Counted from the stretch's first letter, positions 30,175-51,609 are shown. The stretch: DNA of 64,000 nt from Candidatus Micrarchaeota archaeon (GCA_043821365.1 JBDRCX010000006.1:40840-104839); one strand, 5' to 3'. The notes: generated by a model from the letters alone, not told the origin. Made by a program: numbers and translations.

Positions 30175-30912
30175 ATGGAAATAAATCGTGCATTCAGATC
30201 AACAACAAAAATTTTACTTGGACAAGAACTTGGACCAGTGGAAGAATACCATGGATTTCTTAGTAGATATATTGATCTTCCAGTAGAGACAAAATCAATT
30301 CTATCAGGAAAGCCAGTTTATCTTGCAGCAGAAACAAAAAAGAAAATTATATCAAACGAAGAAATGAGTAAGTTGTCTTTGCCTTCGGTAAGTATCAATG
30401 AAATAAAAGATATTGATTCCCTTTTTCATGCAGTTCAAGAAAATTTTCATCATGCAGGAAATAAGATTGGGGGTCAGTTCAAAGAAATTAATCGATCAGA
30501 TGAATGTTATGATGTTTATTTCATTAACAATTGCCTCAATGTTTACGAAACTCAATATGCTTCAAATTGTCAAATGATGAAGGATACTAAATATGTTTTT
30601 GGTTGTGCCTGGGGGGTGGAAAATACTTTTGGGATTAATACGAATGAATTCTACAAAGTTTCGAGAGTATTTGAATCAACGATGGTTCTTCATTCTAATG
30701 ATGTCTACTACTCTTACAATTGTAGAAATTGCCATGATGTAATGTTTTGTATGAATCAAAGATCAAAAAGAAATGCAATTGGGAATAATGAACTTTCAAA
30801 AGAAAAATATTTCGAATTGAAGAAAAAACTTCTTTCTGAAATTTGTGATCTGTTAATTAGGAAAAAAACTGCACCCGGCCATATGGATTTGTTTCAGGGG
30901 GTAAATGAATGA
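30175..30912 (+). CDS. Cys-rich paralog family, N-module-only protein (245 aa)
   Basis: Family N-module motifs: RSTTKILLGQELG...Y..FL, INEIKDIDSLFHAV, and C-x-N-C-x-D-V-M-F-C-M-N-Q-R-S-K-R-N-A-I-G-N. It ends at the family linker (KKTAPGHMDLFQGVNE). The stop overlaps the next gene's ATG (ATGA). Confidence 0.5.
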   Translation: MEINRAFRSTTKILLGQELGPVEEYHGFLSRYIDLPVETKSILSGKPVYLAAETKKKIISNEEMSKLSLPSVSINEIKDIDSLFHAVQENFHHAGNKIGGQFKEINRSDECYDVYFINNCLNVYETQYASNCQMMKDTKYVFGCAWGVENTFGINTNEFYKVSRVFESTMVLHSNDVYYSYNCRNCHDVMFCMNQRSKRNAIGNNELSKEKYFELKKKLLSEICDLLIRKKTAPGHMDLFQGVNE

Positions 30913-31625
30913 ACATTCAGGAAAAATTTGATGGGACAGCATTAGTACTTTTTGGGACTGTATTAGGTGAAATTGATGATTTTGAAAAAACTTTAAGCAA
31001 GAAACTACCAAGAACAGTTGGTGAGAAAGGACTAACTATACCACAATATGGCTCATTTAAAAAAATACCAAAAAACAAAGTTGTTCCAATAACTGAATTA
31101 GATAGAGTAGGACAACATAGGATAGAAATTGGACCTGGTGAAAATCTGGAAACCATCTCAGAAAAATGGTCGGAAAAAGCAATTTTTGTAGCAGATTTGA
31201 ATGAAGGAATAAACAATGAGGTTATTGATTCTGCAATTTATTATAATCTGACAAATGCTTACAAAATAATTGATTGTTTTAGTTCCAAACATATTGCATA
31301 CTCTTTTTTCTCTGATAATTGCGATCATGCATTTGGAATAGAAAAATGCTTTGATTGTAGTTTTGTAATGAATGTAAGAGCATCCAGAAAAATAACAAGG
31401 GCATATGAAGTTGATTTTTCAGAGAACTGTAGTGACATAATGTTTTGCCATAATGTTGCAAATGTTAAAGACTCATTATTTTGCCATAATGTAAAAAATC
31501 TGAGATATGCAGTGTTAAATAAAGTAGTTGGAAAGGAAGAGTATCTTAGAATAAAGAAAATGGTAATTGAAGAAATAATAAAAAAATTAAAAACAAAAAA
31601 TTCCTATTTTTTGGCATGTACTTGA
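30909..31625 (+). CDS. Cys-rich paralog family, C-module-only protein (238 aa)
   Basis: C-module motifs: QEKFDGTALVLFGTVLGEIDDFEKTL and CSDIMFCHNVANVKDSLFCHNVKNLRYAVLNKVVGKEEYLRIKKM. Translationally coupled to 30175..30912. Its last 8 codons lie inside the 54-nt tandem repeat. Confidence 0.5.
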   Translation: MNIQEKFDGTALVLFGTVLGEIDDFEKTLSKKLPRTVGEKGLTIPQYGSFKKIPKNKVVPITELDRVGQHRIEIGPGENLETISEKWSEKAIFVADLNEGINNEVIDSAIYYNLTNAYKIIDCFSSKHIAYSFFSDNCDHAFGIEKCFDCSFVMNVRASRKITRAYEVDFSENCSDIMFCHNVANVKDSLFCHNVKNLRYAVLNKVVGKEEYLRIKKMVIEEIIKKLKTKNSYFLACT

Positions 31626-31727
31626 ACGGCGTTCCGTTCAAGATAGTCAAAAAATTCCTATTTTTTGGCATGTACTTGAACGGCGTTCCGTTCAAGATAG
31701 TCAAAAAATTCCTATTTTTTGGCATGC
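31595..31727. repeat. 54-nt tandem direct repeat, about 2.4 copies, each containing a 9-bp-stem hairpin (cttgaacgg-cgtt-ccgttcaag)
   Basis: The unit is aaaaaattcctattttttggcatgtacttgaacggcgttccgttcaagatagtc, seen at 31595-31648, 31649-31702 and partially at 31703-31726. It lies between two convergent genes. The first copy supplies the stop region of 30909..31625 and the last partial copy supplies the C-terminal codons (HAKK) of the minus-strand TrmB gene. Confidence 0.6.
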
Positions 31728-32470
31728 TTCCATAAAAGCTCAAACTGTCTGCGGTAGGCTTCTGCAAGATCCTTTCCACGAATAATAATCCCGTGGAATG
31801 GTTCTGAAAATGTAATAAAAGCAACATTATCACCATAGATAAAAGTTGCTGTTGGACTGAAGAATTCAGATGATAAAAACCTGTATTCAGTGGTACCATA
31901 ATCCTTTCCTGGAAGAAATCGATCACCTTCCCTAACAAGGACCCGTTCTTTGAGTTTGTGTTTTTTTAGAAGAAGGAAAATTTTGCTAAGGCCAATGGGA
32001 TCTGCATCCATGAATTTTTTTTCATCTACACCCATAACAAGATCCTCACCACCGGTACGGATAAGGGTTTCAATAACATCCATCATTATGGCTCGCACTG
32101 CTTTTTTACCGCTAAAAAGTTCAACCACTGAACGATCTTTCGAAGTGCCTGCTATTTTTGTAAGTTTTGGCATTATTTTTTTTACATTCTCATCAAATGA
32201 ACTTGCCCAAGATAGAAATTCAGTTGGTGGAGCTGCATTGTAAAGTCTAACTTTATCTTTGATAATAAAACTAACCAAACCTTTTTCAGAGAGTTTTTTC
32301 AAAGTGTCATAAACATATGGCCTATAGATACCAGAATATTGTGCAATTGTAGACACTGTTGCTTCGCCAATTCTCAGAAGAGTTAGATAGGCCAATGCTT
32401 CATTTTTTGTAAATCCAAGTTTGGTTAATGATTCTATTTCTTCTTCAAATGCCATAGTTAATTTATGCAA
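31712..32470 (-). CDS. TrmB-family transcriptional regulator (TrmB-like, about 250 aa)
   Basis: N-terminal winged HTH LGFTKNEALAYLTLLRIGEATVSTIAQYSGIYRPYVYDTLKKLSEKGLV matches the TrmB N-domain. It is followed by a shorter effector-like domain. Confidence 0.6.
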   Translation of the reverse strand: MHKLTMAFEEEIESLTKLGFTKNEALAYLTLLRIGEATVSTIAQYSGIYRPYVYDTLKKLSEKGLVSFIIKDKVRLYNAAPPTEFLSWASSFDENVKKIMPKLTKIAGTSKDRSVVELFSGKKAVRAIMMDVIETLIRTGGEDLVMGVDEKKFMDADPIGLSKIFLLLKKHKLKERVLVREGDRFLPGKDYGTTEYRFLSSEFFSPTATFIYGDNVAFITFSEPFHGIIIRGKDLAEAYRRQFELLWKHAKK

Positions 32471-32574
32471 TATAGCTATTTTTATGTTTGTCGTTCTTAC
32501 TAATACGACAGCCTCGTGATATAGGCGATGAATAGACGAATAAAGTGTCTATAAGTAAATATATGTGGAGCGAA

Positions 32575-32584
32575 TATTTAAATA
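32575..32584 (+). promoter_or_regulatory. Putative TATA box (tatttaaata) about 23-32 nt upstream of the 32607 ATG
   Basis: The AT-rich box is at the canonical archaeal distance for a leaderless transcript. No SD is present. Confidence 0.3.
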
Positions 32585-32606
32585 ATAAACAGAACATAAT
32601 TAAAGT

Positions 32607-33263
32607 ATGAAATTTTGTGAAATGGGAGTTTATCATCATGATTGTTGGTTTACAGATGCAATAGAAAAATTCCCAGAACTACAAGTCAAAGAAATATCTG
32701 CGCGAGTATGCAAATTAGAATCAGGGACAAAAATAAATACTGCGTGCTATCGTTTATTTTCACCAAAAAAAGAATCACTAGATGGTTTTGTCAAGCAGAT
32801 AGTTCCAAATGTATCTGGTGCTAAGCTTCTTTCTAGTGATGGTTCGGTTGCTTTATTGGAGGTATCATGGAGAGCACCAAAAACCTCCTACGATACTGTA
32901 CTTGCAAGTGGATGTTCCACCACTTCATCCTGTTATGCAAAAGATGGATATGAAACATACTCATTATTCACTGAGGATCCTACGCAAATAAAGAAATTGT
33001 TTACAGATATGAATGAGATAGGCGAGGTAAAAATATTTGGCATAAAGAATGAACCAAAAAATAATGATAATTACGGTCTAACTCCAAAACAAAGACAGGC
33101 ACTGGCATCTGCAGTTTCCATGGGATATTACGAATGGCCAAAGAAGGTTAACTTAGAGGAACTTGCATCCAGACTTGGAATCAAAAGACGTGCATTACAA
33201 GAGAATTTGAGAAAAGCGGAAGGTAGAGTGTTGCAGAAACTTTTGGATGAACTAACTAGTTAG
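32607..33263 (+). CDS. HTH_10 (Bat/DmsR-like) family transcriptional regulator
   Basis: C-terminal LTPKQRQALASAVSMGYYEWPKKVNLEELASRLGIKRRALQENLRKAEGRVL is the HTH_10 signature (E-x-P-R with a helix-turn-helix). 218 aa. Confidence 0.55.
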   Translation: MKFCEMGVYHHDCWFTDAIEKFPELQVKEISARVCKLESGTKINTACYRLFSPKKESLDGFVKQIVPNVSGAKLLSSDGSVALLEVSWRAPKTSYDTVLASGCSTTSSCYAKDGYETYSLFTEDPTQIKKLFTDMNEIGEVKIFGIKNEPKNNDNYGLTPKQRQALASAVSMGYYEWPKKVNLEELASRLGIKRRALQENLRKAEGRVLQKLLDELTS

Positions 33264-34121: not shown

Positions 34122-35690
34122 ATGGATTTAGATATTTATAATCATTTAAACAAACAATGGAAATCAACATACAAAATTCTTCTTGGCCAAGAAGCAGATG
34201 AACTAATTGAGCATAAAGATTGGCTCTGTAGAGGTAATGGTCCAAGATTACTAAAAAAATCTTCTATTTCTGGAAAAGAAATTGTATATTCAAGTGATAA
34301 ATACTCTGATAATTCAAAATGGATAGGACATGATGAAGTGGGGGGGAAATTCGAACCATTGAATATGAATGAGATCAAAGATATTGATTCTATAATAGAG
34401 GCAGTAAGAGAAAGAATAACCTATTCTGGTAGTGTTGTTCTTGGAAACTCGAAATTTGTCAAAGGTAGTACAACCATTAGTGATTGTTTTTACATTTTGG
34501 ATTCAGAAAGAGTTGCATTTTCTAAAAATGTTGCGTACTCAACCAGAGGAGGGTACAGTGAGAACATATTCGGGTGTTATGGTTTCGGGCCAGTAACATT
34601 TGCAATAAAATCATATGGGATAACTGAATCAACCAGGATTTTTTTGACTTCAAAAGCAGATTTCTCTTCGGATATTTATTATTCGCATGGGATCTCAAAC
34701 TGTATGGAATGTATTTTTTCATTCAATATAAGAAGCAAAAGATATGCAATTGGAAATTTAGTTCTTCCAAAAGAAAAATATGCTTTGCTTAAAAAGAAAC
34801 TTCTTGCTGAGATTGCAGAAAAATTGAAAAAAGAAAAAACACTACCATCAATTGCTGAATTGATAAAGCATGAGGGAAATCCGATAGAATTGATAGATTT
34901 AGTTGGAACCACATCGAAAACTGAAAAGGAAGACAAACAAAGAATCGAAAAAGCATTTAAACAAACAACAGAGGTTTTGATTGGTAAACCATTGAATGGC
35001 ATAGATAAATATGCAACATGGATGAAACGTGAATCAAGTGTTTTATTGAAACCGGCAAACTCATGTATATCAGGAGAACCAATCACACTACCAGATTATG
35101 CAGGATTCATTGATTACCCGGATCAACGACTATTAACCCAAGAAGAAGCATACCGAGCAGGTGAAAAACTTGCCATTATAGAGGGAGAGGCACATAAATT
35201 ATCAATTGAAAACGCTTCTGTTATTCTTAGTAAAATAGCCTATTTCTGTCCGTTTTGGTTTGCAGGAAAACTTGAGAATAATATTGATTCACCATTGAAC
35301 ATTGATTCTAGAGATTGCTATAGTGGAATCTTATACATACGATCAAAATTATGTGCATTTTCTTTTAGCCCACGAAGTTGCGAATACTGTTTTGGTTCAA
35401 GAGAAGGAAGGCATGTTTCATTTTCCATAAATTCACATTTTTCTATGCGTGTAACCCGTTGTTTCGAAGTGGACCATTGCTCGGATTGCTCAGATTGCTA
35501 TTTTTGCCACAATTGCGAAAACGTTCAAGATTCAATGTTTTGTTTTAATGTAAAGAATTTGAGAAATGCAATTGGAAATACTCCAGTTGATCGCGGATTA
35601 TATCAACAAACAAAGACCAATTTGAGAGAGTGGTTAGCAGAAAAACTTGAACAGAAAAATAAGGTGGACTCAACTATTTTTTCACTCTAA
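34122..35690 (+). CDS. Cys-rich paralog family, fused N+C two-module protein (522 aa)
   Basis: N-module: WKSTYKILLGQEADELIEHKDWL, MNEIKDIDSIIEAV, CMECIFSFNIRSKRYAIGN. Linker KTLPSIAELI. C-module: IEKAFKQTTEVLIGKPLNGIDKYATWM, CFEVDHCSDCSDCYFCHNCENVQDSMFCFNVKNLRNAIGN. Confidence 0.55.
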   Translation: MDLDIYNHLNKQWKSTYKILLGQEADELIEHKDWLCRGNGPRLLKKSSISGKEIVYSSDKYSDNSKWIGHDEVGGKFEPLNMNEIKDIDSIIEAVRERITYSGSVVLGNSKFVKGSTTISDCFYILDSERVAFSKNVAYSTRGGYSENIFGCYGFGPVTFAIKSYGITESTRIFLTSKADFSSDIYYSHGISNCMECIFSFNIRSKRYAIGNLVLPKEKYALLKKKLLAEIAEKLKKEKTLPSIAELIKHEGNPIELIDLVGTTSKTEKEDKQRIEKAFKQTTEVLIGKPLNGIDKYATWMKRESSVLLKPANSCISGEPITLPDYAGFIDYPDQRLLTQEEAYRAGEKLAIIEGEAHKLSIENASVILSKIAYFCPFWFAGKLENNIDSPLNIDSRDCYSGILYIRSKLCAFSFSPRSCEYCFGSREGRHVSFSINSHFSMRVTRCFEVDHCSDCSDCYFCHNCENVQDSMFCFNVKNLRNAIGNTPVDRGLYQQTKTNLREWLAEKLEQKNKVDSTIFSL

Positions 35691-35739: not shown

Positions 35740-37383
35740 ATGGAAGGTAGCTACAATGAACTCAACAAAGAATGGAAAATAACATCACGACTCGTATTTG
35801 GAGGAGAAATAGGGGAACTCCAAGATTATAGAGACTGGCTCATTGAATTGAATAATCCTAGATTTACAAAAAACTCCTCAATTTCTGGTAAGGAAACTAT
35901 TTTCTCAAGTAGTGAATATGATGACCAGTCCAGATTTCTGGCTCTTGACGAAATTCCAGCAACACAATATTTTGAACCATTGAAAAATCATCAGATTTTT
36001 CAAAATTTGAACGGTAAACCGTTCAATCCTTTGAATATCAATGAGATCAAAGATATTGATTCCATAGTAGAAGCGATCCAAGAAAGAATCTATTATTGTG
36101 GGAATATAGTTTTAGGTAATTCGAAGTTTGTTGAGAAAAGTTCAAACATAACAAACAGTTTCTATGTTTATGATTCTGTAAAAATTAGTGATTGTAAAAA
36201 TATAGCATACTCACAGTATCTTCGCCTATGTGAAAATGTATTCGGAACAAATGAGGGTGGAGAATCAAAATATTGCATACGGTGTTGTATACTTTTCAAA
36301 AATGCAAGAAGTTTTGAGTTGTGGAAAAGTACTTGTTGCACAGATTGTTATTATTCATTTGGATTGAATGGGTGTAATGATGTTATTTTCTCATTTAACA
36401 TCCAGGGAAAGTCCAACGTAATAGGAAATCTTTCGCTTCCAAAAGACAAATACCGTGAGATAAAGAAAAAACTACTTGATGAAATGAGAGACGAACTTGT
36501 TAAGACTAAAAAACTACCATCACTCGTAGAGCTGACTATAAAAGAACCGGAAATCCCTGATGGCTATGGTTTGTGTGGACAGGATAAGGAAAAAAGCAGA
36601 AGTACAGTTGATAGTGCATTTAGCAAAACTTCTGAACTTTTGTTTGGTCAACAACTTCAAGGAAAGATGGAGGATTACGATGAATGGTTACGCTCACATA
36701 TAATTGTCCCATATTCTGTGAAATCAGTACTAAGCAAAAAAACAGTCCAACTTTCTCAATGGCCTGGTTTGGCTCAGTTGCCAAAAAACAGGATAGTAAC
36801 TTTGAATGAGGCTAGAGAACTAGCCAAACTTATGATAACAAATGAGCAAGCAGAAAGAATATCACTAACAAATGCATCAGATTACTTAACAAAAATAGCA
36901 TATTTCCCACCTGAAGAGATGACAGGAGAAAATACAAACTTAATTGAATGTCAATGGGGATCATCAGCAGCAAATTGCTATCGATCTGTGATATGTGTAT
37001 ATAGTAAAAACTGCGGTTATTGTTCCTGGCCACGAAGTTCGGAAAATTGTTTTGGCTGTGGAATTGTTTTTGACTCTAATTTTTCGATGAAATGCTATGA
37101 TTCAATTAAACTTTCCAGATGTTTTGAAGTAGATGCATCATCATCCTGTACTGACACGTACTTTGCACATAACTGTGAAAATGTACGAGACTCGATGTTT
37201 TGCTTCAATGTAAAGAATTTGAAAAATGCAATTGGAAATTGTCAACTCCAAACTGATCAGTATAAGAGTATAAAATCATCATTACAAGTGCAACTCCATA
37301 ATGGATTAGAATTAAAAAAATGTCTTGGTCTAAGTATTTTTAGTCTTAATAGAAATAAGCCACTTAAAGCATATCCCACATAA
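35740..37383 (+). CDS. Cys-rich paralog family, fused N+C two-module protein (about 547 aa)
   Basis: ATG at 35740 (MEGSYNELNKEWKITSRLVFGGEIGEL); the track ORF opens at TTG 35647. INEIKDIDSIVEAI, linker KKLPSLVEL, C-terminal CFEVDASSSCTDTYFAHNCENVRDSMFCFNVKNLKNAIGN. Confidence 0.55.
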   Translation: MEGSYNELNKEWKITSRLVFGGEIGELQDYRDWLIELNNPRFTKNSSISGKETIFSSSEYDDQSRFLALDEIPATQYFEPLKNHQIFQNLNGKPFNPLNINEIKDIDSIVEAIQERIYYCGNIVLGNSKFVEKSSNITNSFYVYDSVKISDCKNIAYSQYLRLCENVFGTNEGGESKYCIRCCILFKNARSFELWKSTCCTDCYYSFGLNGCNDVIFSFNIQGKSNVIGNLSLPKDKYREIKKKLLDEMRDELVKTKKLPSLVELTIKEPEIPDGYGLCGQDKEKSRSTVDSAFSKTSELLFGQQLQGKMEDYDEWLRSHIIVPYSVKSVLSKKTVQLSQWPGLAQLPKNRIVTLNEARELAKLMITNEQAERISLTNASDYLTKIAYFPPEEMTGENTNLIECQWGSSAANCYRSVICVYSKNCGYCSWPRSSENCFGCGIVFDSNFSMKCYDSIKLSRCFEVDASSSCTDTYFAHNCENVRDSMFCFNVKNLKNAIGNCQLQTDQYKSIKSSLQVQLHNGLELKKCLGLSIFSLNRNKPLKAYPT

Positions 37384-39909: not shown

Positions 39910-40135
39910 ACAGTTATCGTCTTCATGCATACGACAACAGGATAAATATGCTGAAAGAGCAAGTTTACAAATGGGAAAGAAAACTTGGGAAACAAATAAA
40001 CAGCCAGTTTTGGACCTTATCTTTTCGATGAGTTTTTGGGTACCTTTTTCCAAAAAAGGTACAAAACCGCTCTACAGCGGCACTAGAGATATATATTTCA
40101 AAAAAGAGATAGTTGGTGTGGGAATATGGAAGTAA
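39902..40135 (+). CDS. Small hypothetical protein (77 aa) bridging the paralog gene and the HerA-like ATPase
   Basis: ATG at 39902 with GAGGTGG 7 nt upstream. It overlaps the upstream stop in the same ATGNNTAA pattern used by the split paralog pairs, and overlaps the ATPase start by 10 nt. It contains a hydrophobic segment VLDLIFSMSFWVPF. Confidence 0.3.
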   Translation: MAKQLSSSCIRQQDKYAERASLQMGKKTWETNKQPVLDLIFSMSFWVPFSKKGTKPLYSGTRDIYFKKEIVGVGIWK

Positions 40136-44594: not shown

Positions 44595-45357
44595 GCACAT
44601 CACCGTTAATTATATCTATCAATGATGGAAGTTTCTTTCTTGCTTTCAGAATCTCACGCATTTCACCAATGAGTTTTTCCTTTAATTTATGGTATTCTTC
44701 AGGACTAAATTGGTGGTTTCCGATCATATAACTTTTATTTCTTTGATTGAAAGAAAACATACAATTGGTGCAATTTTCCAGACTTCCTGTAAAATAACAA
44801 TCTGATGCAACATAGTTTCTGATGGTTTCCAAGCATCGGACATTTTTGTAGGTTTCAAAGGTTTTGATATTAAACTTACTCCCTTCACCAATTGCATTAC
44901 CACCAAAGATGTACTCTGCAAATCTTAGAACTGATGAGTATGCGACAAATTTACAATCATAAACATCTTGGGTTTTATAAATAAATGAGGAATTGATGCA
45001 CCTATTAGAGACCTGAACTTCACGGGAGTTACCAAGAACAACATTACCAATATAATATGCTTTTTCATTAACAGCTTCAATAATGGAATCAATATCTTTG
45101 ATTTTGTTTATATCATATTTTTGCTTGCCAATTGTGTTCATATATTGATCAATTTCATCAAGGCTTAGGAATTTGGCCCCTGGAGCAACTTTTTCAGATG
45201 ATACAATAACTTCTTTCCCAGATAAGGCGGATTTTTTCATACCAAATGGATCAACATATCTTAGAAGCCATGTCTCGTATTCACCAAGGTTGCCAAGTTC
45301 TTCTCCAAATAGCACCTTGGATGTTTTTTTCCATGCAACATTAATATCAGAATTCAT
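44587..45357 (-). CDS. Cys-rich paralog family, N-module-only protein (256 aa)
   Basis: WKKTSKVLFGEELGNLGEYETWL, INKIKDIDSIIEAV, CTNCMFSFNQRNKSYMIGN. It ends at the linker KKLPSLIDIINGDVHG. Confidence 0.5.
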   Translation of the reverse strand: MNSDINVAWKKTSKVLFGEELGNLGEYETWLLRYVDPFGMKKSALSGKEVIVSSEKVAPGAKFLSLDEIDQYMNTIGKQKYDINKIKDIDSIIEAVNEKAYYIGNVVLGNSREVQVSNRCINSSFIYKTQDVYDCKFVAYSSVLRFAEYIFGGNAIGEGSKFNIKTFETYKNVRCLETIRNYVASDCYFTGSLENCTNCMFSFNQRNKSYMIGNHQFSPEEYHKLKEKLIGEMREILKARKKLPSLIDIINGDVHG

Positions 45358-46127
45358 TATTGCTGCCCCACATTAAAAATATTCAAACTAAGTCGTTTGT
45401 CTTTTTCTAGTTTTTTTGTAAGTTCTTCAAGAACTTTTTGTTTTATTTCGAGGTATTTTTCTTTACCGACTTCGATATTGGCAATTGCGTACCTCTTTGC
45501 TTTTACATTAAAACAAAACATGCAGTTATTCAGATTTTCACAATTATGACAGAACAGTGAATCAGTACAATTGCTACAGTCACTCATTTCAAAGCAACGA
45601 TTAAGGTTTTCAGAATTGTAACACTTGATACAGAATTGAGAGGAAAAAGTGTAGAAAGTACCAATATTGTAATCTGATTGCCTTGGCCAAAAACAATAGA
45701 AACAATATTTGGAACGGACAAGAGCAACACACTTGTAACTATAATGAGATGAATAGTAAAAATCACAATCAATAAGATTGCTGCACTCACCATAGCGAGT
45801 ATTTGGAGTGGTGGTGGATAATTTTGCCAAAAGATTTTTAGCAGTGGAAAAGGTTAGTTGGTTTAGTTCATCATCAGAAAGATGGTTTTTTCCGTGGGTA
45901 AAATAGGCTTCTTCTATGGTAAGTATGTTGTGTTTTATGTCTCGATAAAAATCAAATGGTGGAAGGTATATTTTTTCACCACTAATAAGTGATTTGCCAT
46001 ATTCATTCGTTGATACATTTTCAGTTAGCCAATCTTCATAATCTTTGAAATTACAAAGTTTTTTGCCTAGAACAATCGAAGTAATGGTCTGAAAAGATTT
46101 TTCAAGATCAGATTCTAGTTTATCCAT
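45357..46127 (-). CDS. Cys-rich paralog family, C-module-only protein (about 256 aa)
   Basis: ATG at 46127 (MDKLESDLEKSFQTITSIVLGKKL...). CFEMSDCSNCTDSLFCHNCENLNNCMFCFNVKAKRYAIAN. The stop overlaps the next N-module ATG (TAATG). Confidence 0.5.
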   Translation of the reverse strand: MDKLESDLEKSFQTITSIVLGKKLCNFKDYEDWLTENVSTNEYGKSLISGEKIYLPPFDFYRDIKHNILTIEEAYFTHGKNHLSDDELNQLTFSTAKNLLAKLSTTTPNTRYGECSNLIDCDFYYSSHYSYKCVALVRSKYCFYCFWPRQSDYNIGTFYTFSSQFCIKCYNSENLNRCFEMSDCSNCTDSLFCHNCENLNNCMFCFNVKAKRYAIANIEVGKEKYLEIKQKVLEELTKKLEKDKRLSLNIFNVGQQ

Positions 46128-46908
46128 TCCAATCACCTTTCCCACTTATTATCTCTATTATCGAGGGAAGTTTCTTCTTTCTTTTAAGTTCATCGGCAAA
46201 TTCACCAACTAATTTTGATTTCAGTTCAGCATATTTATCTTTAGTCAGCTGTATATTGCCAATTAGATAGTTCTTATTTCTTTGATTAAATGAAAAGATA
46301 CAGTTGGTACAGTCCTCAAGACTTGCAGAATAGAAACTATCAGATGCAACATTACAATGATAGGTTTCCAAGCACCGGAGTTGTTTGTGCGGATCAAGGA
46401 CTTTTATACAGAACTGAATCTCTCCACCAAAACAACAACCAAATGAGTACTCTGGACTGCGAATAGAAGTTGTATATGCAACGTATTTTCCATCATAAAC
46501 ATCCTGGCAACCCATGGCATAAACAGTATTAACGCAACGGTGTGAGTTTATCACATTGGTTGAATGTCCCAAAACAATATTTCCAGCATAACAGACTTTT
46601 TCTTTAGCTGCATGAATAATTGAATCAACATCTTTGATATCATTGATATTGAAGGGCATTGAAAACATTCTTTTTTCGTATTCATGCATTTCCTCATGAC
46701 CTATCACTGGTGCTTGTTTTGGCACCCTATTGGATGAGATTGTAACATCATTGCCACTTAGAATGGATTTTCTTTTTACGATTGGGTCAGTATATGTTTT
46801 TAGATAATTTGTAAATTCTGATAGTTCACCAACTTCTTGACCAAGCAGAACCTTACAAGTGGATTTCCAAGATTTATTTAATTGATTAATAATCATAGCA
46901 TCAGACAT
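46120..46908 (-). CDS. Cys-rich paralog family, N-module-only protein (about 262 aa)
   Basis: ATG at 46908 (MSDAMIINQLNKSWKSTCKVLLGQEVGEL). INDIKDVDSIIHAA, CTNCIFSFNQRNKNYLIGN, linker KKLPSIIEIISGKGDWNG. Its stop/start overlap with the next gene is ATGGATAA. Confidence 0.5.
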   Translation of the reverse strand: MSDAMIINQLNKSWKSTCKVLLGQEVGELSEFTNYLKTYTDPIVKRKSILSGNDVTISSNRVPKQAPVIGHEEMHEYEKRMFSMPFNINDIKDVDSIIHAAKEKVCYAGNIVLGHSTNVINSHRCVNTVYAMGCQDVYDGKYVAYTTSIRSPEYSFGCCFGGEIQFCIKVLDPHKQLRCLETYHCNVASDSFYSASLEDCTNCIFSFNQRNKNYLIGNIQLTKDKYAELKSKLVGEFADELKRKKKLPSIIEIISGKGDWNG

Positions 46909-47689
46909 TAGGATCACCTTTTCCTATTGAATAAATGTCAAAATTTACGGTTTTAGTTTTTGATAATTGATCGTTAATATGAGTAAGTAGAATTTTTTTC
47001 ACACGCATATATTCTTCACGGCCAACTTCTATGTTTCCTATCGCATAGCGCTTATTTTTCACATTAAAGCAAAACATGCAGTCGTTCAGACCTTCTGAAT
47101 TATGACAGAATAGAATATCGCTTGAATGATAGCAACCATCAACTTCGAATGACCGGATAACTTTAACTGAATTGTAAGCATGAATGCAGAATTGGGAATA
47201 GGGAGTATTATGGCAACCAAACATATTCTGAGAATACATTGGATAGTTGGAATATGCCACGTTTTTTATGCCGCCATAAAGGTCGTCACCGTAGTATAGA
47301 TACATGCCATCCCCTGCACCACTGCATTTTTCAATGTTTGAAAATGTCTTCCATCTGAAATTACCGATGGCATAGGCAACTGGTTTTACAATCCTGTTTA
47401 CCATGTCTTTTATGTCAGAATCCTTTATCTCATCATAAATGAATTTAGTATGATTTACTTTGTCCATTTCTTCCATGGAAATAGATCTTTTGCTTGAAAT
47501 TTTTCTCCCCATAAAATTTAGAGTTGGGAAGTTCCAAACCTCAACATCACTAACTGCAGATTTAGCTGGATGGGGGAGTGGAACATATTTACCAAGCCAG
47601 GGACCATAATCATCAATACCAACTAGTGGTTTGCCAAGTAAAAGGTTAGATGTACTAGAAAATTCCTTTTCTAATTCAGGCCAGACCAT
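46901..47689 (-). CDS. Cys-rich paralog family, C-module-only protein (about 262 aa)
   Basis: ATG at 47689 (MVWPELEKEFSSTSNLLLGKPL). CMFCFNVKNKRYAIGNIEVGREEYMRVKKIL. The overlap with the upstream N-module stop is ATGTCTGA. Confidence 0.5.
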   Translation of the reverse strand: MVWPELEKEFSSTSNLLLGKPLVGIDDYGPWLGKYVPLPHPAKSAVSDVEVWNFPTLNFMGRKISSKRSISMEEMDKVNHTKFIYDEIKDSDIKDMVNRIVKPVAYAIGNFRWKTFSNIEKCSGAGDGMYLYYGDDLYGGIKNVAYSNYPMYSQNMFGCHNTPYSQFCIHAYNSVKVIRSFEVDGCYHSSDILFCHNSEGLNDCMFCFNVKNKRYAIGNIEVGREEYMRVKKILLTHINDQLSKTKTVNFDIYSIGKGDPNV

Positions 47690-47690
47690 A

Positions 47691-48467
47691 TTAGGCACCC
47701 TCCCCCAGAATATCCATTATGGACATTATTCTCTTTCTTTTTTTCAAATCCTCAGCCATTTCGCCTATTAATTTTGCCCTCAACGGGGCATATTGTTCTT
47801 TTGTGAGTTGTACATTGCCGACCATATTTCGTTTTGCACGTACATTGAAAGTGAAAAGGCAATCAGATGAACCAGTAACATTATGGCAGAAATAACAATC
47901 AGAACTACTTACAGTAAGACTGCACTCAAAACAGCGTTTGAGAGAATTGTTATAGAGGCATCTTATGAGCATGGAACTGTCACCGCTTGAAGTTGATGCA
48001 AAACAATATTCGTTATTCCGTAGCATGTAGCAGTATGCAACATATTTTCCATTGACAATCATTGATGAATCAAGAACATAATTGCTGTCAGTTATGTTAT
48101 CTGAATTTTTCACAAATTTCGAGTTTCCGAGAACTTTGTTGCCACTGTAAATGAATTTTTCTTCTACTGCATCAAAGAGAGAATCAACATCCTTGATTCG
48201 GTTTACATCAATTGGCTTGGACAGAATAGATGCACTTTGGATTTCTTTATTGTAATCAAAAAATCTGGCTTTTGGAGGATAATGTTTTGACGTGACAAAT
48301 AGGTCTTTGCCAGATATTATTGATTTTACTGATTTGCCAACCAATGGTTCTTTTAGATAGTCAGAATAATCAGACATCACGCTAAGTGGTTCCCCAAATA
48401 GGACTTTGGTAGTTTGCTTCCAAGCATTATCCATAATTGTCTCTATGCCATTAGTTTCGAATGCCAT
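47691..48467 (-). CDS. Cys-rich paralog family, N-module-only protein (about 258 aa)
   Basis: ATG at 48467 (MAFETNGIETIMDNAWKQTTKVLFGEPL); the track ORF begins at GTG 48506. VNRIKDVDSLFDAV, CLFTFNVRAKRNMVGN, linker KRIMSIMDILGEGA. Confidence 0.5.
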   Translation of the reverse strand: MAFETNGIETIMDNAWKQTTKVLFGEPLSVMSDYSDYLKEPLVGKSVKSIISGKDLFVTSKHYPPKARFFDYNKEIQSASILSKPIDVNRIKDVDSLFDAVEEKFIYSGNKVLGNSKFVKNSDNITDSNYVLDSSMIVNGKYVAYCYMLRNNEYCFASTSSGDSSMLIRCLYNNSLKRCFECSLTVSSSDCYFCHNVTGSSDCLFTFNVRAKRNMVGNVQLTKEQYAPLRAKLIGEMAEDLKKRKRIMSIMDILGEGA

Positions 48468-50047
48468 AATTTTGACCCTCTTCCACCTAAATTGAAAATG
48501 CTCCACGGAATGCTCTTTCTTTTTTCAAGATCATCAACGATCTGAGCAAGAACAGTGGATTTAATTGATTTGAACTTATCCTGTGGCAACACTCCATTGC
48601 CAATTGCAAACCGTAAATTTTTTGCATTAAAACAAAACATACTATCTCGTACATTTTCGCAATTGTGTGCAAAGTAAATATCTGAACAGTTATTTGATGC
48701 ATCCACCTCAAATGCTCTTGAGAGATTCATGGAATAATATGTGTGAATACAGAAATTCGAAGTAAATGAAAGACCACAACCATAGACATATTTTGAATGC
48801 CTAGGCCAATAGGAAAAGGCAACATTTTCATTGAATGATGCAATTGGACAGTAATAACAATTTACAGAAGTATTGCAAAGTGGAACCATGATTAAATTTT
48901 TTGTTTCTCCCAATTGACCTTCTGGATTGAAATAAGCAATTTTACCGATTGATTTTTTCAAGCTAGACAATGACTCTATATCTTCTCCATCAAGTTGCAG
49001 ATTTTCTCCTAATGCCCAATTTTCCCATTGGGTAACTAATCGATCACGAGAATAAAGGTGGAATGGTGAAGTTTCACCAAGATAAACTGGTTTTCCGGTT
49101 GCCGAAGATTTTTCTTCACTTATATATGGCACATGACTTAGCAACCAGCCCTTATAATTATCAATTTGTGAAAGGGGGTTGTTGAATAAAAGAGATGTTG
49201 TTTTTTGAAAACCTAATTCAATAGGTCCTTTATTTTTTTGTTCTTTATCATCAGAAGGATTGAAATTTTTTGGAACAGGAAGTGCATCACAACTTTTTGA
49301 TGCAATTTCCATCAATGATGGAAGTTTTTTCTTTATCTCAAGCTCAATCTTAAGATCTTCAATAAGTTTTTCTTTTAAAGAAAGATATTTTTCTTTTGTC
49401 AATTGGATATTTCCTATGACATTTCTTTTGTTTTTTAGATTAAATGAAAAAAGAACATCCTGTGAACCCTGGACACATGAACTGAAATAACAATCACTTG
49501 AATCATAACATTTCCATGCTTCAAGACATCGTGATTGTTTGTGGGTTTCAAATGCCCTTACTGTTGAGGTTGTAAAAGCATCACTAACAACACCAAAAAG
49601 ATATTTGCTACCCCGGCAATATGAACAATATGCCATATATTCTGAATCATAGATAAAATTGGAATTGTAAACATAGAACGAGTTTTGTACATCTGAACTT
49701 TTTTCAACATGTTTGGAATTTCCAAGAACAACATTACCGCAATAGTAAACTCTTTCTTCCAAAGCTTCAATGATAGAATCGATATCTTTGATCTCATTTA
49801 TATTCAATGGTTCGAATTTTTGGCCATAATCAATTTCATCAAGTGAAATAAATTTGGCATTGTCTTCATAATCAGATACGGCACAGTACACTTCTTTATT
49901 TGATTTTGCTGATTTTTTATTTTTTAGAGGAACACAACCTTCTGAAAGCCATTCGGAATAGTTATCAATATCACCTACCTCTGCACCTAAGAGCACTTTC
50001 ATAGTAGATTTCCAAGACTTGTTTATTGATTCACGAACCTCGGTCAT
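48443..50047 (-). CDS. Cys-rich paralog family, fused N+C two-module protein (534 aa)
   Basis: INKSWKSTMKVLLGAEVGDIDNYSEWL, INEIKDIDSIIEAL, linker KKLPSLMEIA, C-terminal AFEVDASNNCSDIYFAHNCENVRDSMFCFNAKNLRFAIGN. Its ATG overlaps the upstream stop (ATGA). Confidence 0.55.
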   Translation of the reverse strand: MTEVRESINKSWKSTMKVLLGAEVGDIDNYSEWLSEGCVPLKNKKSAKSNKEVYCAVSDYEDNAKFISLDEIDYGQKFEPLNINEIKDIDSIIEALEERVYYCGNVVLGNSKHVEKSSDVQNSFYVYNSNFIYDSEYMAYCSYCRGSKYLFGVVSDAFTTSTVRAFETHKQSRCLEAWKCYDSSDCYFSSCVQGSQDVLFSFNLKNKRNVIGNIQLTKEKYLSLKEKLIEDLKIELEIKKKLPSLMEIASKSCDALPVPKNFNPSDDKEQKNKGPIELGFQKTTSLLFNNPLSQIDNYKGWLLSHVPYISEEKSSATGKPVYLGETSPFHLYSRDRLVTQWENWALGENLQLDGEDIESLSSLKKSIGKIAYFNPEGQLGETKNLIMVPLCNTSVNCYYCPIASFNENVAFSYWPRHSKYVYGCGLSFTSNFCIHTYYSMNLSRAFEVDASNNCSDIYFAHNCENVRDSMFCFNAKNLRFAIGNGVLPQDKFKSIKSTVLAQIVDDLEKRKSIPWSIFNLGGRGSKLWHSKLMA

Positions 50048-51609
50048 TTCATCCCTCCGATGGTAAAAATATTAAATCGAAGATTTTTCTTGTCAAGTAT
50101 TTCTGAACTTAGTTGCTCAGTGATAGATTCTTTTATTTTGGAATAATCTGCTTGTGGGATGGTCGTATTCCCAATTGCATGCCTCTTGCCTTTTACATTA
50201 AAACAGAACATACTGTCACTTAGACCCTCAGAATTATGACAGAAAAATGAATCAGAACATTTGTTCGACGTGTCTACTTCTAGACAACGGCTAAGATATA
50301 GTGAATTATGACAATTGATACAGAACTCGGAATTCATATTACGGTAGCCACCAAAAATATACTTTGAACTAAATGCTGATGATATGACACCAAGATTTTC
50401 ACTTTGGACTATGTCAAAGCCTTTGTAGACATTGTTCGTATAGTAAACTAATGGTGACTGAATGATATTACTATTTACACCATCCAAAATTTCAACTGAA
50501 AAATAGGCAATTTCAGCGAGATTTGAAATGATTGAATCTACTGAATTGATTTTTGATGGATCCAGAGTGAGTTTACTAAGTTCCAACCCTTCCCCTAAAG
50601 TAACTAGAAGTTCTTTTGGAAAAAGAGAAAGGGCATATAGATCTGGATGAAGAGGGAGATAGGTTGTTCTTCCAAACATTGTTTTTATTGAATCCATCTT
50701 TATTTTTTCAGATGAAAGCCAAGACTCATAATTTTTTATTGTTCCAGGATCTTTTTTCAGAATAATTTTGAATGTTGATGTAAAACTCCTCTCAATTACT
50801 TGCATATCGCCTGTATCTGGTTTTTTTGGTGTGGAAAGAACTGGTCGTTTTGGTATTTTTCCCTTTCTTACTAGATCAAATAATGAAGGGTATTTTTTAT
50901 TCTTTTTCAGATCATGAACAACTTCGGATATAAGCTTCTTTTTCAATTCTAGATATTTGTCCCTAGTAAGTTGAAGATTTCCAATTCTATACTTTTTATT
51001 TCTTTGGAAAAATGAAAACAAAAGCTCACTAGAATTGACGCATTGATTAGAAAAATAGATATCAGTACAATCACCGAGAATTTGACTTTCAAAAATACGC
51101 TTGCAATGAAACCCACCATAGAACTTTATTGTAAATTCTGTTTTTCCGAACCACCCTGAACCAAAAATATGTTTACTGTTAAGACGAACTAAAGATGAAT
51201 GGAAAACGTTAGTAGATTGGGAGATATTCAGAGAATTGGCAACATAATTTGAATCCATTACAAGATCTGAAGATTCAACGAACTTGGAATTACCTAGAAT
51301 TCTGTTGCCTGTGTATGTCCATTCTTCAGAAACTGCCCTTGTAATTGAATCAATGTCTTTGATATCATTTATTGACAGTGGTTTTGATTCTTTTATTTCA
51401 TCTGCAGAAATAACTTTTGCCAATTTAGAATAATCTGATGCAAGTACCACATCTTTACCAGAAATTGCGGATTTTGAAACTTGAGGTTTTGGACAGTACT
51501 CCTTCAACCACTCTTCATAATCCCTAAGCTCACCTAGCTCTTCTCCAAGAAGAATCTTGCATGTTGATGACCAGGATTTGTTAAGTGATGAATAAAGCTC
51601 GGAATTCAT
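50044..51609 (-). CDS. Cys-rich paralog family, fused N+C two-module protein, most divergent member (521 aa)
   Basis: LNKSWSSTCKILLGEELGELRDYEEWL, INDIKDIDSITRAV, linker KKYPSLFDLV, C-terminal CLEVDTSNKCSDSFFCHNSEGLSDSMFCFNVKGKRHAIGN. First paralog of the minus-strand array. Confidence 0.55.
   Translation of the reverse strand: MNSELYSSLNKSWSSTCKILLGEELGELRDYEEWLKEYCPKPQVSKSAISGKDVVLASDYSKLAKVISADEIKESKPLSINDIKDIDSITRAVSEEWTYTGNRILGNSKFVESSDLVMDSNYVANSLNISQSTNVFHSSLVRLNSKHIFGSGWFGKTEFTIKFYGGFHCKRIFESQILGDCTDIYFSNQCVNSSELLFSFFQRNKKYRIGNLQLTRDKYLELKKKLISEVVHDLKKNKKYPSLFDLVRKGKIPKRPVLSTPKKPDTGDMQVIERSFTSTFKIILKKDPGTIKNYESWLSSEKIKMDSIKTMFGRTTYLPLHPDLYALSLFPKELLVTLGEGLELSKLTLDPSKINSVDSIISNLAEIAYFSVEILDGVNSNIIQSPLVYYTNNVYKGFDIVQSENLGVISSAFSSKYIFGGYRNMNSEFCINCHNSLYLSRCLEVDTSNKCSDSFFCHNSEGLSDSMFCFNVKGKRHAIGNTTIPQADYSKIKESITEQLSSEILDKKNLRFNIFTIGGMK

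Follow-up and report, generated by a model that had tools for sequence, protein, structure and literature searches.

Two-module proteins of Micrarchaeia with predicted narrow beta-solenoids, encoded beside a HerA/FtsK-like ATPase

Ten two-lobed units, predicted to be rod-shaped and each made of an N-type and a C-type module, take up about 22 kb in a MAG of Candidatus Micrarchaeota, a tiny symbiotic archaeon. The window analysed here is the whole 64,000-nucleotide stretch (GCA_043821365.1 JBDRCX010000006.1:40840-104839). The two-module proteins constitute an old, lineage-specific family of the archaeal class Micrarchaeia, with inward-facing ladders of interchangeable small residues. Our best explanation, to which we give a probability of about 0.4, is that the units form soluble N·C heterodimers that may be paralogue-specific partners of a Micrarchaeota-specific ATPase. 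An N and a C module would pair as a pseudo-symmetric heterodimer, and the differentiated heterodimers would serve as adaptors, clients or accessory subunits of the adjacent ring ATPase of HerA/FtsK/coupling-protein type.

Organisation and age of the locus

A preliminary description of this DNA listed 14 ORFs at 30175-51609, and their coordinates and strands were all borne out (Table 1). With a module profile exactly 20 modules of about 250 aa were found in these ORFs, and the profile together with a six-frame scan gave no further modules elsewhere in the window. The units comprise six fused N-C proteins (521-578 aa), which share 37-41% identity with each other (E 1e-99 to 1e-133), and four split N+C pairs. 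N-type and C-type modules are homologous, as had been proposed, with 24-30% identity over approximately 240 aa (E 1e-12 to 1e-24), and each unit thus represents an old duplication. The shared motifs are not an artefact of composition, since the likeness is positional across whole modules in the alignment.

Table 1. Features of the locus, numbered from the first nucleotide of the window
Position	Strand	Feature	Evidence and remarks
30175..30912	+	split unit 1, N-type module, 245 aa	module profile E 1e-90; N-type by alignment
30909..31625	+	split unit 1, C-type module, 238 aa	module profile E 3e-81; start overlaps N-gene stop by 4 nt
31712..32470	-	TrmB-family regulator, convergent with unit 1	PF01978 TrmB, 64.2 bits (cut-off 25.6)
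32607..33263	+	HTH_10 regulator, head of plus-strand side	PF04967, 68.8 bits; Bilamarchaeum orthologue by synteny, 67% identity
33260..34027	-	TrmB-family regulator, divergent from fused unit 34122	PF01978, 58.3 bits
34063..34083	+	palindromic operator-like element CAACTACGACCCCTCCAGGGG, then A/T-rich box	~40 nt upstream of start codon 34122
34122..35690	+	fused N-C unit, 522 aa, the protein modelled	AF2
35740..37383	+	fused N-C unit	ORF opens TTG 35647; likely start ATG 35740
37364..38101	-	TrmB-family regulator, divergent from fused unit 38317	PF01978, 47.7 bits
38238..38258	+	second copy of TrmB-side palindrome, CAACTACGACCCCCAGGGGGG	exact 13-mer recurrence
38317..39909	+	fused N-C unit, 530 aa, immediately upstream of ATPase	module profile
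40039..40062	+	terminator-like hairpin GGTACCTTTTTCCAAAAAAGGTAC	read from sequence; equivalent hairpin in L037
40064..40080	+	palindromic element AAACCGCTCTACAGCGG, then TATA-like box, upstream of ATPase	two window copies
40126..42270	+	HerA/FtsK/coupling-protein-like P-loop ATPase, 714 aa, Micrarchaeota-specific	PF01935 DUF87, PF10412
42254..43828	-	fused N-C unit, last gene of minus-strand operon	module profile; L037 orthologue 79%
43830..44603	-	split unit, C-type module	module profile; L037 orthologue 83%
44587..45357	-	split unit, N-type module	module profile; L037 orthologue 81%
45357..46145	-	split unit, C-type module	module profile; L037 orthologue 80%
46120..46917	-	split unit, N-type module	module profile; L037 orthologue 81%
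46901..47698	-	split unit, C-type module	module profile; L037 orthologue 81%
47691..48506	-	split unit, N-type module	module profile; L037 orthologue 83%
48443..50047	-	fused N-C unit, 534 aa	module profile
50044..51609	-	fused N-C unit, 521 aa, first gene of nine-gene minus-strand operon	module profile
51647..51663	-	second ATPase-type palindrome AAACCGCTCTGCAACGG, then A/T-rich box, upstream of nine-gene operon	sequence match
51697..52413	-	HTH_10 regulator, directly upstream of minus-strand operon	PF04967, 69.5 bits

N precedes C without exception, in 45 split-module genes as well as in 117 fused genes, and the N/C gene junctions overlap. Judged from this fixed order and from the overlaps, N-C pairing would be obligate. 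Throughout the nine-gene minus-strand operon the genes either overlap or lie 1 nt apart, and its last unit, convergent with the ATPase gene, overlaps the end of that gene by 17 nt. Two start codons are probably misplaced: TTG 35647 lies too far upstream, the ATG at 35740 (MEGSYNELNKEW) being the one that aligns with the other N-termini, and GTG 48506 over-extends the ORF 47691..48506. On the plus strand, the fused unit 34122..35690 is 100% identical to a Micrarchaeota MAG protein, the unit 35740..37383 is 71% identical to the Bilamarchaeum unit just upstream of the ATPase, and the unit 38317..39909 has an orthologue in L020 (62% identity).

The family had been called unrecognised, and it is indeed without a match in Pfam, NCBIfam, PADLOC and PDB. 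The best Pfam-A matches to the two-module proteins were unrelated noise (E >= 0.005), none of which recurred across 50 homologues, nothing came near a cut-off in NCBIfam, and PADLOC gave zero matches for four family proteins. In public data the family amounts to at least 340 clusters at 50% identity. Its named matches are all from Micrarchaeota, with the exception of two oddly labelled MAGs, and both module types are present in the two orders Gugararchaeales and Anstonellales.

If the term "large expansion" is taken to mean a recent burst within one lineage, it does not hold, because all nine copies of the minus-strand array have one-to-one orthologues, in the same order, in Ca. Bilamarchaeum with 79-83% identity, compared to 33-49% between paralogues. 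The orthologue values are similar to those of the housekeeping neighbours, which exhibit 62-91% identity between genomes. By these comparisons the paralogues are old, differentiated and under purifying selection. The locus is syntenic across genera and has housekeeping flanks.

The proposal of a diversified defence family fares poorly against the same data. As an anti-virus or conflict system, the units would be a diversified sensor family coupled to a HerA-type effector ATPase; HerA-type ATPases are known in several defence systems, the ATPase has weak PADLOC matches (mad8, 7.8e-11; HerA models, 3e-8 and weaker), and the paralogues are many. However, with zero PADLOC matches for the family itself, no relatives found on viral contigs, cross-genus synteny with housekeeping flanks, a core-like ATPase and purifying selection on the paralogues, we regard such a system as extremely unlikely.

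Predicted fold and the cysteine ladder

The fused unit 34122..35690 was modelled with AF2 (pLDDT 80.3, pTM 0.84), with strands approximately every 6 residues. Each module is predicted to consist of an N-terminal alpha/beta cap domain (95 aa), a narrow two-sheet beta-solenoid with about 9-10 coils of about 12 residues each, and a long amphipathic C-terminal helix of 25-30 residues. In the model cap domain and helix flank each solenoid, so that both of its ends are capped. The solenoid of the N-module is predicted with moderate confidence only (pLDDT ~65-70).

Across a profile built from 628 non-redundant modules, the Cys+Ser frequency has autocorrelation peaks at lags 3, 6 and 12 (0.38, 0.66 and 0.57, respectively), values that were reached by none of 5000 shuffles, and hydrophobic residues exhibit a peak at lag 12. 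Together with the strand spacing of the model, the Cys+Ser peaks indicate the 12-residue coil known from the Tenebrio molitor antifreeze protein (TmAFP, PDB 1ezg), which has its own TCTxSxxCxxAx beta-helix. Common to both is a very narrow solenoid in which every third residue is small and points inward, often being Cys or Ser. In contrast to TmAFP, where the disulfide positions are 2 and 8, the family lacks conserved i/i+6 Cys pairs, none of which is found among the correlated Cys columns. It also lacks a Thr-x-Thr ice-binding ladder (Thr dominates no periodic profile column) and a signal peptide, has the cap domain and the long helix, and is archaeal and cytoplasmic with many paralogues. No common ancestry with TmAFP was detectable.

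Other solenoids resemble the family less closely. Curli CsgA (PDB 8c50) and the ryegrass ice-binding protein (PDB 3ult) are likewise two-sheet beta-solenoids, but with 6-7% sequence identity to the family, repeats of about 19-23 and 14-15 residues rather than about 12, and secretion from the cell; moreover, the ends of the curli solenoid are uncapped, and curli assembles into amyloid. The pattern [LIV]-[GAED]-x2-[STAV]-x and Hexapep of the left-handed beta-helix hexapeptide-repeat enzymes were not found. Bactofilins (DUF583) share with the family a cytoplasmic beta-solenoid, several operonic paralogues and a cooperation with P-loop ATPases that is putative for the family, but they are three-sided helices with uncapped ends, disordered tails and turns of about 18 residues, as opposed to capped, two-lobed proteins.

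These likenesses bear on the possibility that the units are a cytoskeletal or scaffold heteropolymer, stacked end to end in the style of bactofilins or curli and remodelled by the ATPase. The beta-solenoid fold, with CsgA as the top structural match, and the many differentiated paralogues in fixed gene order speak for it, as does the fact that bactofilin paralogues are operonic and work with P-loop ATPases. Nevertheless, we find a polymer very unlikely: a cap domain and a C-terminal helix sit at the solenoid ends, and capping normally blocks end-to-end stacking. Furthermore, neither Curlin_rpt nor bactofilin families were matched in Pfam or NCBIfam, and solitary copies, each under its own regulation, are hard to reconcile with a fixed stoichiometry.

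The label "cysteine-rich" applies to some copies only and fails for the family as a whole, the Cys content varying from 2.1 to 5.8% among copies. The reported CxxCxxCxxCxxC run is real and occurs in two C-modules (34122-35690 and 43830-44603). The preliminary description suggested Zn or Fe-S binding by the regularly spaced Cys; in a wider form of this idea the Cys would coordinate Zn, Fe-S or other metals, or the units would store metal or cysteine. In its support some copies have 5-6% Cys with CxxC-type spacing and the run, in three genomes the cluster is flanked by a PLP-dependent enzyme of threonine/cysteine-synthase fold, and Cys on adjacent stacked rungs correlate modestly (phi up to 0.55). 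On the other hand, R, F and N are the only residues that are invariant across the 20 modules of the window, Cys accounts for at most 83% of any column among the 628 modules, and single modules contain from 0 to 21 Cys. A conserved metal site is therefore unsupported, and the conserved Cys/His ligand set expected of an Fe-S or zinc metalloprotein is absent. Cys is replaced mainly by Ser, and at some ladder positions by Val, Leu or Ile, and no Fe-S or zinc-finger family matched consistently (zf-CXXC in 3 of 50 members, E 0.01). A metal-related role is thus highly improbable, and Cys is instead one of two interchangeable small residues, Cys and Ser, in an inward-facing ladder with spacing 3/6/12.

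No hydrophobic N-terminus or TM-like segment was present in the family proteins (maximum 19-residue Kyte-Doolittle hydropathy <=1.64), in line with the earlier claim that they are cytoplasmic and without signal peptides. By this sequence measure they appear to be soluble cytoplasmic proteins.

The adjacent ATPase

With its Walker A (GTSGSGKS, 210-217) and Walker B (VLVVDE, 432-437) motifs and Pfam scores over cut-off (PF01935 DUF87, 42.3 bits vs 23.2; PF10412, 35 vs 20.5), the ATPase qualifies as a P-loop ATPase of the HerA-FtsK superfamily. In common with HerA, FtsK, VirD4-TraD and CedD it has Walker A/B, DUF87 and TrwB_AAD_bind above cut-off, and a helical insertion in the P-loop core. It differs from them in lacking a TM anchor (maximum hydropathy 1.66, located inside the ATPase core and not at the N-terminus) and a NurA partner, and in having its own beta-rich N-terminal domain, seen with the all-alpha insertion in an AF2 model, and a disordered Pro/Glu/Lys-rich tail (565-714). 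Orthology to HerA, CedD, TraD/VirD4 or FtsK was rejected, the scores being 12-37 bits versus NCBIfam equivalog cut-offs of 250-970 and the N-terminal TM anchor missing. Identity is 47-83% among the Micrarchaeota matches listed and 87% to Bilamarchaeum, and the protein, which appears once per named genome in that listing, looks like a conserved core gene.

The suggested linkage of family and ATPase is conserved. The ATPase is present in 10 family-anchored loci, and family genes are directly adjacent to it in four of four ATPase-anchored look-ups. In Gugararchaeum N, C and ATPase genes form an operon with a 4-nt gap, in Anstonella and L086 family arrays are convergent with the ATPase, and in L087 an N+C pair is divergent from it. 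By contrast, the claimed radical SAM linkage was not recovered, as an rSAM query matched no ORF in 82 loci. The reading of heterodimers as ATPase partners is weakened because the resemblance of the ATPase to HerA, FtsK and TraD is confined to the P-loop (the PDB profile match covers about 50 residues around it), and because the cluster is without a membrane component, nuclease or other recognisable partner pointing to a process.

The FtsK/coupling-protein-like ATPase might instead export the N·C heterodimers or deliver them into the host, as symbiont adhesins or effectors. Paired multi-paralogue units without signal peptides adjoin an FtsK/HerA-superfamily ATPase that has the all-alpha insertion and weak matches to coupling-protein domains (TrwB_AAD_bind, 35 bits; TraG-D_C, E 0.002). 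We consider export unlikely, since the ATPase has no TM segment and the cluster no conserved membrane channel gene, the i/i+6 signature expected for intra-coil disulfides is missing, and the orthologues are conserved like housekeeping proteins, a level that would be unusual in effectors facing a host.

Regulators and the functional reading

The three TrmB-family regulators of Table 1 exceed the Pfam cut-off for the TrmB winged-helix domain, and no sugar-binding C-terminal domain was detected in them. The proposed TrmB linkage is conserved as well: a TrmB gene neighbours a unit in 12 loci, and HTH_10 and AsnC-type regulators do so in 17 and 3 loci, respectively. The exact 13-mer of the CAACTACGACCCCTCCAGGGG-type palindrome occurs twice in the window (0.26 expected), the motif is found at the same position in the TrmB-unit cassettes of L053 and L059, and cassette-specific palindromes are kept between genomes. 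The ATPase-type palindrome also occurs twice (0.02 expected), and three other genomes (L037, L020, L045) have kept it upstream of their ATPase gene. If the heterodimers are partners of the ATPase, the core array would be co-regulated with it via this putative common operator, and the peripheral copies would each be switched by their own TrmB, HTH_10 or AsnC regulator on a cassette-specific palindrome. The binding or functional site would most likely be on the last three rungs of the C-module, where R179, E182, H196, N197 and N209 make up the polar patch with the highest conservation.

Many units are found outside the ATPase setting, as solitary regulator-plus-unit cassettes among housekeeping genes (L001, L083, L084). 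They too weaken the ATPase-partner reading, and being far from the ATPase, these units may act on their own. The units could then be self-contained ligand-binding proteins or enzymes, each paralogue with its own small molecule or glycan that is sensed by the neighbouring one-component regulator, with an incidental or secondary linkage to the ATPase. Such an arrangement would follow the logic of a LysR-type regulator, which is divergently transcribed from the gene it controls. Besides the solitary cassettes, the recruitment of three regulator families, each with its own palindrome, fits this alternative, and so does a near-invariant polar cluster in the C-type modules (R179/E182/H196/N197/N209). 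We nevertheless hold a ligand-binding or enzymatic role to be somewhat unlikely: the sequence matches no enzyme family, the inward spacing is 3/3, whereas the hexapeptides of left-handed beta-helix enzymes follow a 4/2 pattern, a coil of about 12 residues leaves little room for a pocket, and the ATPase both neighbours family genes in all four ATPase-anchored loci and has its operator in common with the array.

For export of the heterodimers by the ATPase, the analogy is type VII secretion, where the FtsK-like EccC handles many paralogous Esx and PE/PPE heterodimer pairs without signal peptides. The logic is similar, an FtsK/HerA-superfamily ATPase beside many paralogous adjacent pairs that are expected to form heterodimers and have no signal peptides. 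However, Esx, PE and PPE proteins are helical hairpins and not beta-solenoids, the present ATPase contains a single P-loop domain without any TM segment, and EccB-, EccD- or EccE-like membrane genes are absent; membership in type VII secretion is excluded and the likeness is an analogy only. A bolder and rather unlikely extension is that the N·C solenoid heterodimers and the FtsK/HerA-like ATPase together make up a previously undescribed ATPase-driven machine of Micrarchaeota, possibly for signal-peptide-independent delivery or display of a paralogous heterodimer repertoire at the symbiont-host interface. If this is true, the logic of the machine would resemble that of type VII secretion, built from unrelated parts.

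Gene arrays, modules and relatives

The five plus-strand and nine minus-strand ORFs of the preliminary description were recovered at 30175-51609 by ORF listing, and a profile built from the modules counted exactly 20 of them, all in these 14 ORFs; no module outside them was detected when the whole window was searched with this profile, six-frame scan included. Six ORFs encode fused N-C proteins (521-578 aa) and eight form four split pairs, N preceding C in every pair. Identity among the fused proteins is 37-41% (E 1e-99 to 1e-133), and N-type and C-type modules, described from the start as distant homologues, do align with each other at 24-30% identity over ~240 residues (E 1e-12 to 1e-24). 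Since the alignment is positional along entire modules, low-complexity composition cannot explain the similarity, and this artefact, initially named as a possible though unlikely refutation, is ruled out by the E-values and the positional alignment. One ORF probably begins downstream of its TTG at 35647, and an ATG at 35740 agrees with the other N-termini.

Coordinates of features in the window
Feature	Position	Strand	Remark
Plus-strand family ORFs	30175-39909	+	five ORFs
Minus-strand family ORFs	42254-51609	-	nine ORFs
Fused protein used as search query	34122-35690	+	522 aa; matches phrog_15341
Family proteins matching phrog_15341	42254-43828, 43830-44603	-	
Array members with Bilamarchaeum orthologues	42254-48506	-	seven ORFs
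TrmB-cassette motif CAACTACGACCCC(T)CCAGGGG	34063-34083, 38238-38258		two copies
Palindrome AAACCGCTCTNCANCGG	40064-40080		upstream of ATPase
Palindrome AAACCGCTCTNCANCGG	51647-51663		upstream of nine-gene operon
ATPase	40126-42270	+	
Short ORF	39893-40135	+	80 aa
Terminator-like hairpin	40039-40062		
Regulator with tandem AsnC/Lrp-type HTH domains	61278-62264	+	328 aa
Radical SAM-motif paralogues	52443-53549, 54787-55896	-	~368 aa each
myo-Inositol-1-phosphate synthase gene	53649-54785		
PLP-dependent enzyme	28542-30062	-	506 aa
ATPase-like protein of possible pilus-like locus	22225-24648	+	807 aa
Pilin-like ORFs	25959-27542	-	four; 96-186 aa
SecD/F-like genes	19342-22139		
Gene run of atypical composition	8453-19240	-	products of 354-730 aa
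Gene with a PP2C phosphatase domain	14127-16319		within the gene run

At each of their junctions the nine minus-strand genes, read from 51609 down to 42254, either overlap or are separated by 1 nt, and this points to a single operon. From 22225 to 51609 the window is collinear with Ca. Bilamarchaeum dharawalense, where seven array members each have a same-order orthologue of 79-83% identity (the Bilamarchaeum locus compared ends inside the eighth array gene, so that the count covers seven members). The window paralogues are only 33-49% identical to each other, and housekeeping neighbours are 62-91% identical to their Bilamarchaeum counterparts. These values mean that the paralogues are old, have each differentiated and evolve under ordinary purifying selection, with family conservation on par with that of housekeeping genes. 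The large expansion proposed earlier thus does not hold as a recent burst, and the comparison argues that the genes are neither such a burst nor an arms-race family; we regard a role in defence, which had also been put forward, as extremely improbable. A provirus or mobile element was rejected because the flanks are syntenic housekeeping genes. Relative to Bilamarchaeum the window has three extra plus-side cassettes, each a unit with a TrmB gene. In Ca. Anstonella stagnisolia a fused unit (L082, 13964-15517) is broken into ORFs of 442 and 55 aa, the shorter matching the C-module end, by either a frameshift (pseudogene) or an assembly error.

A sequence search with the 522-aa protein, which has a 100% identical counterpart annotated as hypothetical in a Candidatus Micrarchaeota MAG, returned 852 significant relatives, none with a Pfam domain; those bearing names are labelled hypothetical or uncharacterised and are all from Micrarchaeota, Ca. 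Anstonella stagnisolia and Ca. Bilamarchaeum dharawalense among them. When 1.84 billion cluster representatives were searched exhaustively with the profile, matches numbered 2479 at E <= 1e-3, falling to 1081 at <= 1e-10 and to 340 at <= 1e-30, and the family comprises at least 340 sequence clusters in public data. Nearly all of the best 150 of the 2479 matches were two-module proteins of ~520-540 aa or their fragments; ~1400 representatives sit in the weak range (E 1e-10 to 1e-3), where non-Micrarchaeota relatives might lie. Among species-representative genomes 371 stretches encode relatives, and the best 80 of these come from Micrarchaeota-labelled MAGs, save one labelled 'ainarchaeum', with 4-6 separate loci each in several genomes. 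A later search gave one match in a MAG labelled Marsarchaeota. At least two orders, Anstonellales and Gugararchaeales, carry the family, and none of the 131 pattern matches in a scan of viral contigs was a relative.

That the family was unrecognised was confirmed: Pfam and NCBIfam gave nothing consistent for single proteins or for all 50 aligned homologues, neither a single protein nor the module profile matched any PDB sequence, and Foldseek found no match at E <= 0.001 against PDB and viral structures. Full-text literature searches found no published description of the family, including in the paper naming Anstonella and Bilamarchaeum, and neither the Ca. Micrarchaeum harzensis co-culture paper nor a 2026 preprint on cysteine-rich repeats describes it. 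In PHROGs, three family proteins weakly matched phrog_15341, a phage family of unknown function, through the C-module solenoid (E 3e-4 to 5e-3), which could reflect a distant Cys-ladder solenoid relative or a composition effect. No RNA families were found in the window with Rfam.

Predicted fold and cysteine usage

An AlphaFold2 model of the 522-aa fused protein, built on a 50-sequence alignment, reached a pLDDT of 80.3 and a pTM of 0.84. In it, a module opens with ~95 aa comprising two helices, a small beta-hairpin and short helices, continues with ~110 aa of short strands about every six residues, and closes with a 22-residue helix. Model confidence was above 90 for the C-module cap and 60-70 for most of both solenoids, where it exceeded 80 only in the last C-module rungs. 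When 628 non-redundant modules (<80% identity) were aligned to the module profile, the autocorrelation of Cys+Ser frequency peaked at lags 3, 6 and 12 (0.38, 0.66 and 0.57; 0/5000 shuffles as high) and that of hydrophobic residues at lag 12 (0.47), with a small residue (Ser/Cys) alternating with Val, Ile or Cys at every third position. Such a pattern is consistent with a very narrow two-sheet solenoid that has ~9-10 coils, each of ~12 residues, and a capped narrow beta-solenoid is well supported as the predicted fold of the modules. Its coil resembles in geometry that of the beetle antifreeze protein, which has 12 residues, and the fold is like that of the antifreeze, curli and ice-binding narrow beta-solenoids, but the modules fail each family's defining features. 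Assembly of the proteins into polymers is very improbable, given that the solenoid ends are capped in the model.

Cysteine makes up 2.1-5.8% of the family proteins in the window, and none is invariant among the 20 modules there, where the invariant residues are a single Arg, Phe and Asn. In the alignment of 628 modules Cys attains at most 83% in any column, the number of Cys per module ranges from 0 to 21 (N-type) and from 1 to 19 (C-type), and Ser is the chief substitute at ladder positions (C36/S34, C56/S33, C44/S41, C65/S32). Cys columns correlate modestly with one another (phi <= 0.55), and preferentially at stacking distances, for instance 12 or 18, rather than at i/i+6, hence there is no antifreeze-type disulfide signature. 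Being non-invariant, Ser-exchangeable and variable in number, the cysteines act as interchangeable small core residues. Their regular spacing had been taken to suggest Zn or Fe-S binding; a family-wide site of either kind is not supported by the alignments, and we consider it very unlikely that these are metalloproteins, metal binding by individual Cys-rich copies being possible. Metal binding and defence would have been the most striking readings, and neither found support.

The conserved positions comprise turn residues (G115, G158, G218, N219), a Phe ladder (F206, F208) and R179, the last in N-type and C-type modules alike. A polar cluster in the last three rungs (E182, H196, N197, N209) is confined to C-type modules, and it is this region that the motif RCFE...HNCEN...FCFN...AIGN of the preliminary description had captured.

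The ATPase, regulators and neighbouring genes

The ATPase between the two arrays has Walker A and Walker B motifs and exceeds the Pfam thresholds of DUF87, which is the central domain of HerA, and of TrwB_AAD_bind; it reaches 12-37 bits against NCBIfam equivalogs with cut-offs of 250-970, and solved HerA/FtsK structures match it only across ~50 residues around the P-loop. On its sequence it is a member of the HerA-FtsK superfamily and the orthologue of no named member. The AlphaFold2 model (pLDDT 73) predicts a beta-rich N-terminal domain (residues 1-160), a ~100-residue all-helical insertion in the P-loop core, and a disordered Pro/Glu/Lys-rich tail (565-714); no TM segment was found. Identity is 47-83% among the Micrarchaeota matches listed and 87% to the Bilamarchaeum orthologue, a 28-sequence alignment has more than 110 invariant columns, and the protein is listed once per named genome, so that it appears to be a lineage-specific core gene of the class.

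Association of the family with a HerA-like ATPase, suspected earlier, was seen from both directions. A large cluster surrounds the ATPase in 10/80 family-anchored loci, and when four ATPase orthologues were looked up independently of the family, family genes directly adjoined the ATPase in all four: an N-C-ATPase operon with a 4-nt gap and a divergent TrmB gene alongside in Ca. Gugararchaeum, a fused-unit array convergent with the ATPase in Ca. Anstonella, at least six fused units beside it in a third genome (L086), and an N+C pair divergent from it in a fourth (L087). The proteins might instead be clients exported by the ATPase, by a logic like that of type VII secretion; with no membrane component and with housekeeping-like conservation, this is rather improbable.

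Linkage to TrmB regulators also recurred, with a TrmB gene divergent from a unit in 12/80 family-anchored loci; HTH_10 regulators stand beside units in 17/80, and tandem AsnC-type regulators take the same role in other loci. The window itself holds a tandem AsnC/Lrp-type regulator with no unit adjacent, of the same architecture as those beside units in Anstonella (L082) and in two MAGs (L084, L085). Both TrmB-paired fused genes are closely preceded by CAACTACGACCCC(T)CCAGGGG and then an A/T-rich box (two exact copies observed, 0.26 expected), and TrmB-unit cassettes of two other genomes carry this motif in the equivalent place; other cassettes have differing palindromes. Upstream of both the ATPase and the nine-gene operon lies a second palindrome, AAACCGCTCTNCANCGG, with a TATA-like box after it (two copies observed, 0.02 expected); this palindrome is also conserved in front of the ATPase gene of three related genomes. 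This suggests one regulon for the ATPase and the core array, with peripheral cassettes individually controlled; the regulators would bind these palindromes. The 80-aa ORF between the last plus-strand unit and the ATPase has no family match, covers a terminator-like hairpin and the operator/promoter region, and is probably not a gene.

Two radical SAM paralogues adjoin the cluster in the window, but a radical SAM query matched nothing in 82 related loci; the linkage once suggested is not supported by these loci, and a radical SAM maturase for Cys-rich proteins was rejected. The two paralogues carry the CxxxCxxC motif, flank the myo-inositol-1-phosphate synthase gene, fall below the Pfam cut-off and lack an NCBIfam match; one has an additional weak SPASM match. 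A PLP-dependent enzyme of threonine/cysteine-synthase fold, with a ~190-aa C-terminal extension containing a hydrophobic segment, flanks the cluster in the window, in Bilamarchaeum and in one further locus (L020), and Bilamarchaeum has a second PALP gene directly after the ATPase; a connection with the supply of cysteine is conceivable.

Further out, an 807-aa protein without a Pfam match (NCBIfam TadA/VirB11/FlaI-type secretion ATPases, E 4e-15; 89% identity to its Bilamarchaeum orthologue) lies near four small ORFs with hydrophobic N-termini resembling archaeal pilins; together with it they could make up a locus resembling that of a type IV pilus, adjacent to the SecD/F-like genes. In two MAGs, split N+C pairs with a divergent AsnC-type regulator (L084, 6801-11417; L085, 2763-7290) adjoin a TPR protein and a type IV pilus-type operon (T2SSE and two T2SSF genes), which may be coincidence or a second recurrent neighbourhood. 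In the gene run at the left of the window most products lack a Pfam or NCBIfam match and several have Arg/Pro-rich N-termini; GC content there is 0.39-0.40 against ~0.35, and GC skew is strongly negative.

Proposed role and significance

We propose that N and C form a pseudo-symmetric heterodimer, because N precedes C without exception, their genes overlap or, in many cases, are fused, and the model of the fused protein reaches a pTM of 0.84. Our tentative reading, with a probability of about 0.4, is that differentiated heterodimers would be adaptors, clients or accessory subunits with which the ring ATPase works. The solitary cassettes and the conserved polar patch of the C-module speak for autonomous ligand-binding proteins or enzymes under ligand-sensing regulators, a reading that we find unlikely though well conceivable.

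Micrarchaeota are genome-reduced DPANN symbionts (~1 Mb), and uncharacterised lineage-specific families are common in DPANN archaea. At least 22 kb, ~3% of the 798-kb contig carrying the window, is devoted here to one unnamed family. Provisionally, the family and its ATPase association stand outside any named family or system, the fold class being familiar. The family definition describes a domain that Pfam lacks, the family is a marker for the class, and the modules offer a natural example of a soluble, capped beta-solenoid with 12-residue coils, in the core of which Cys and Ser can replace one another. The pairing of N with C, the binding of units to the ATPase and the operators of the regulators are testable targets. 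A gene set so costly, old and tightly regulated probably underlies a central part of Micrarchaeota cell biology.
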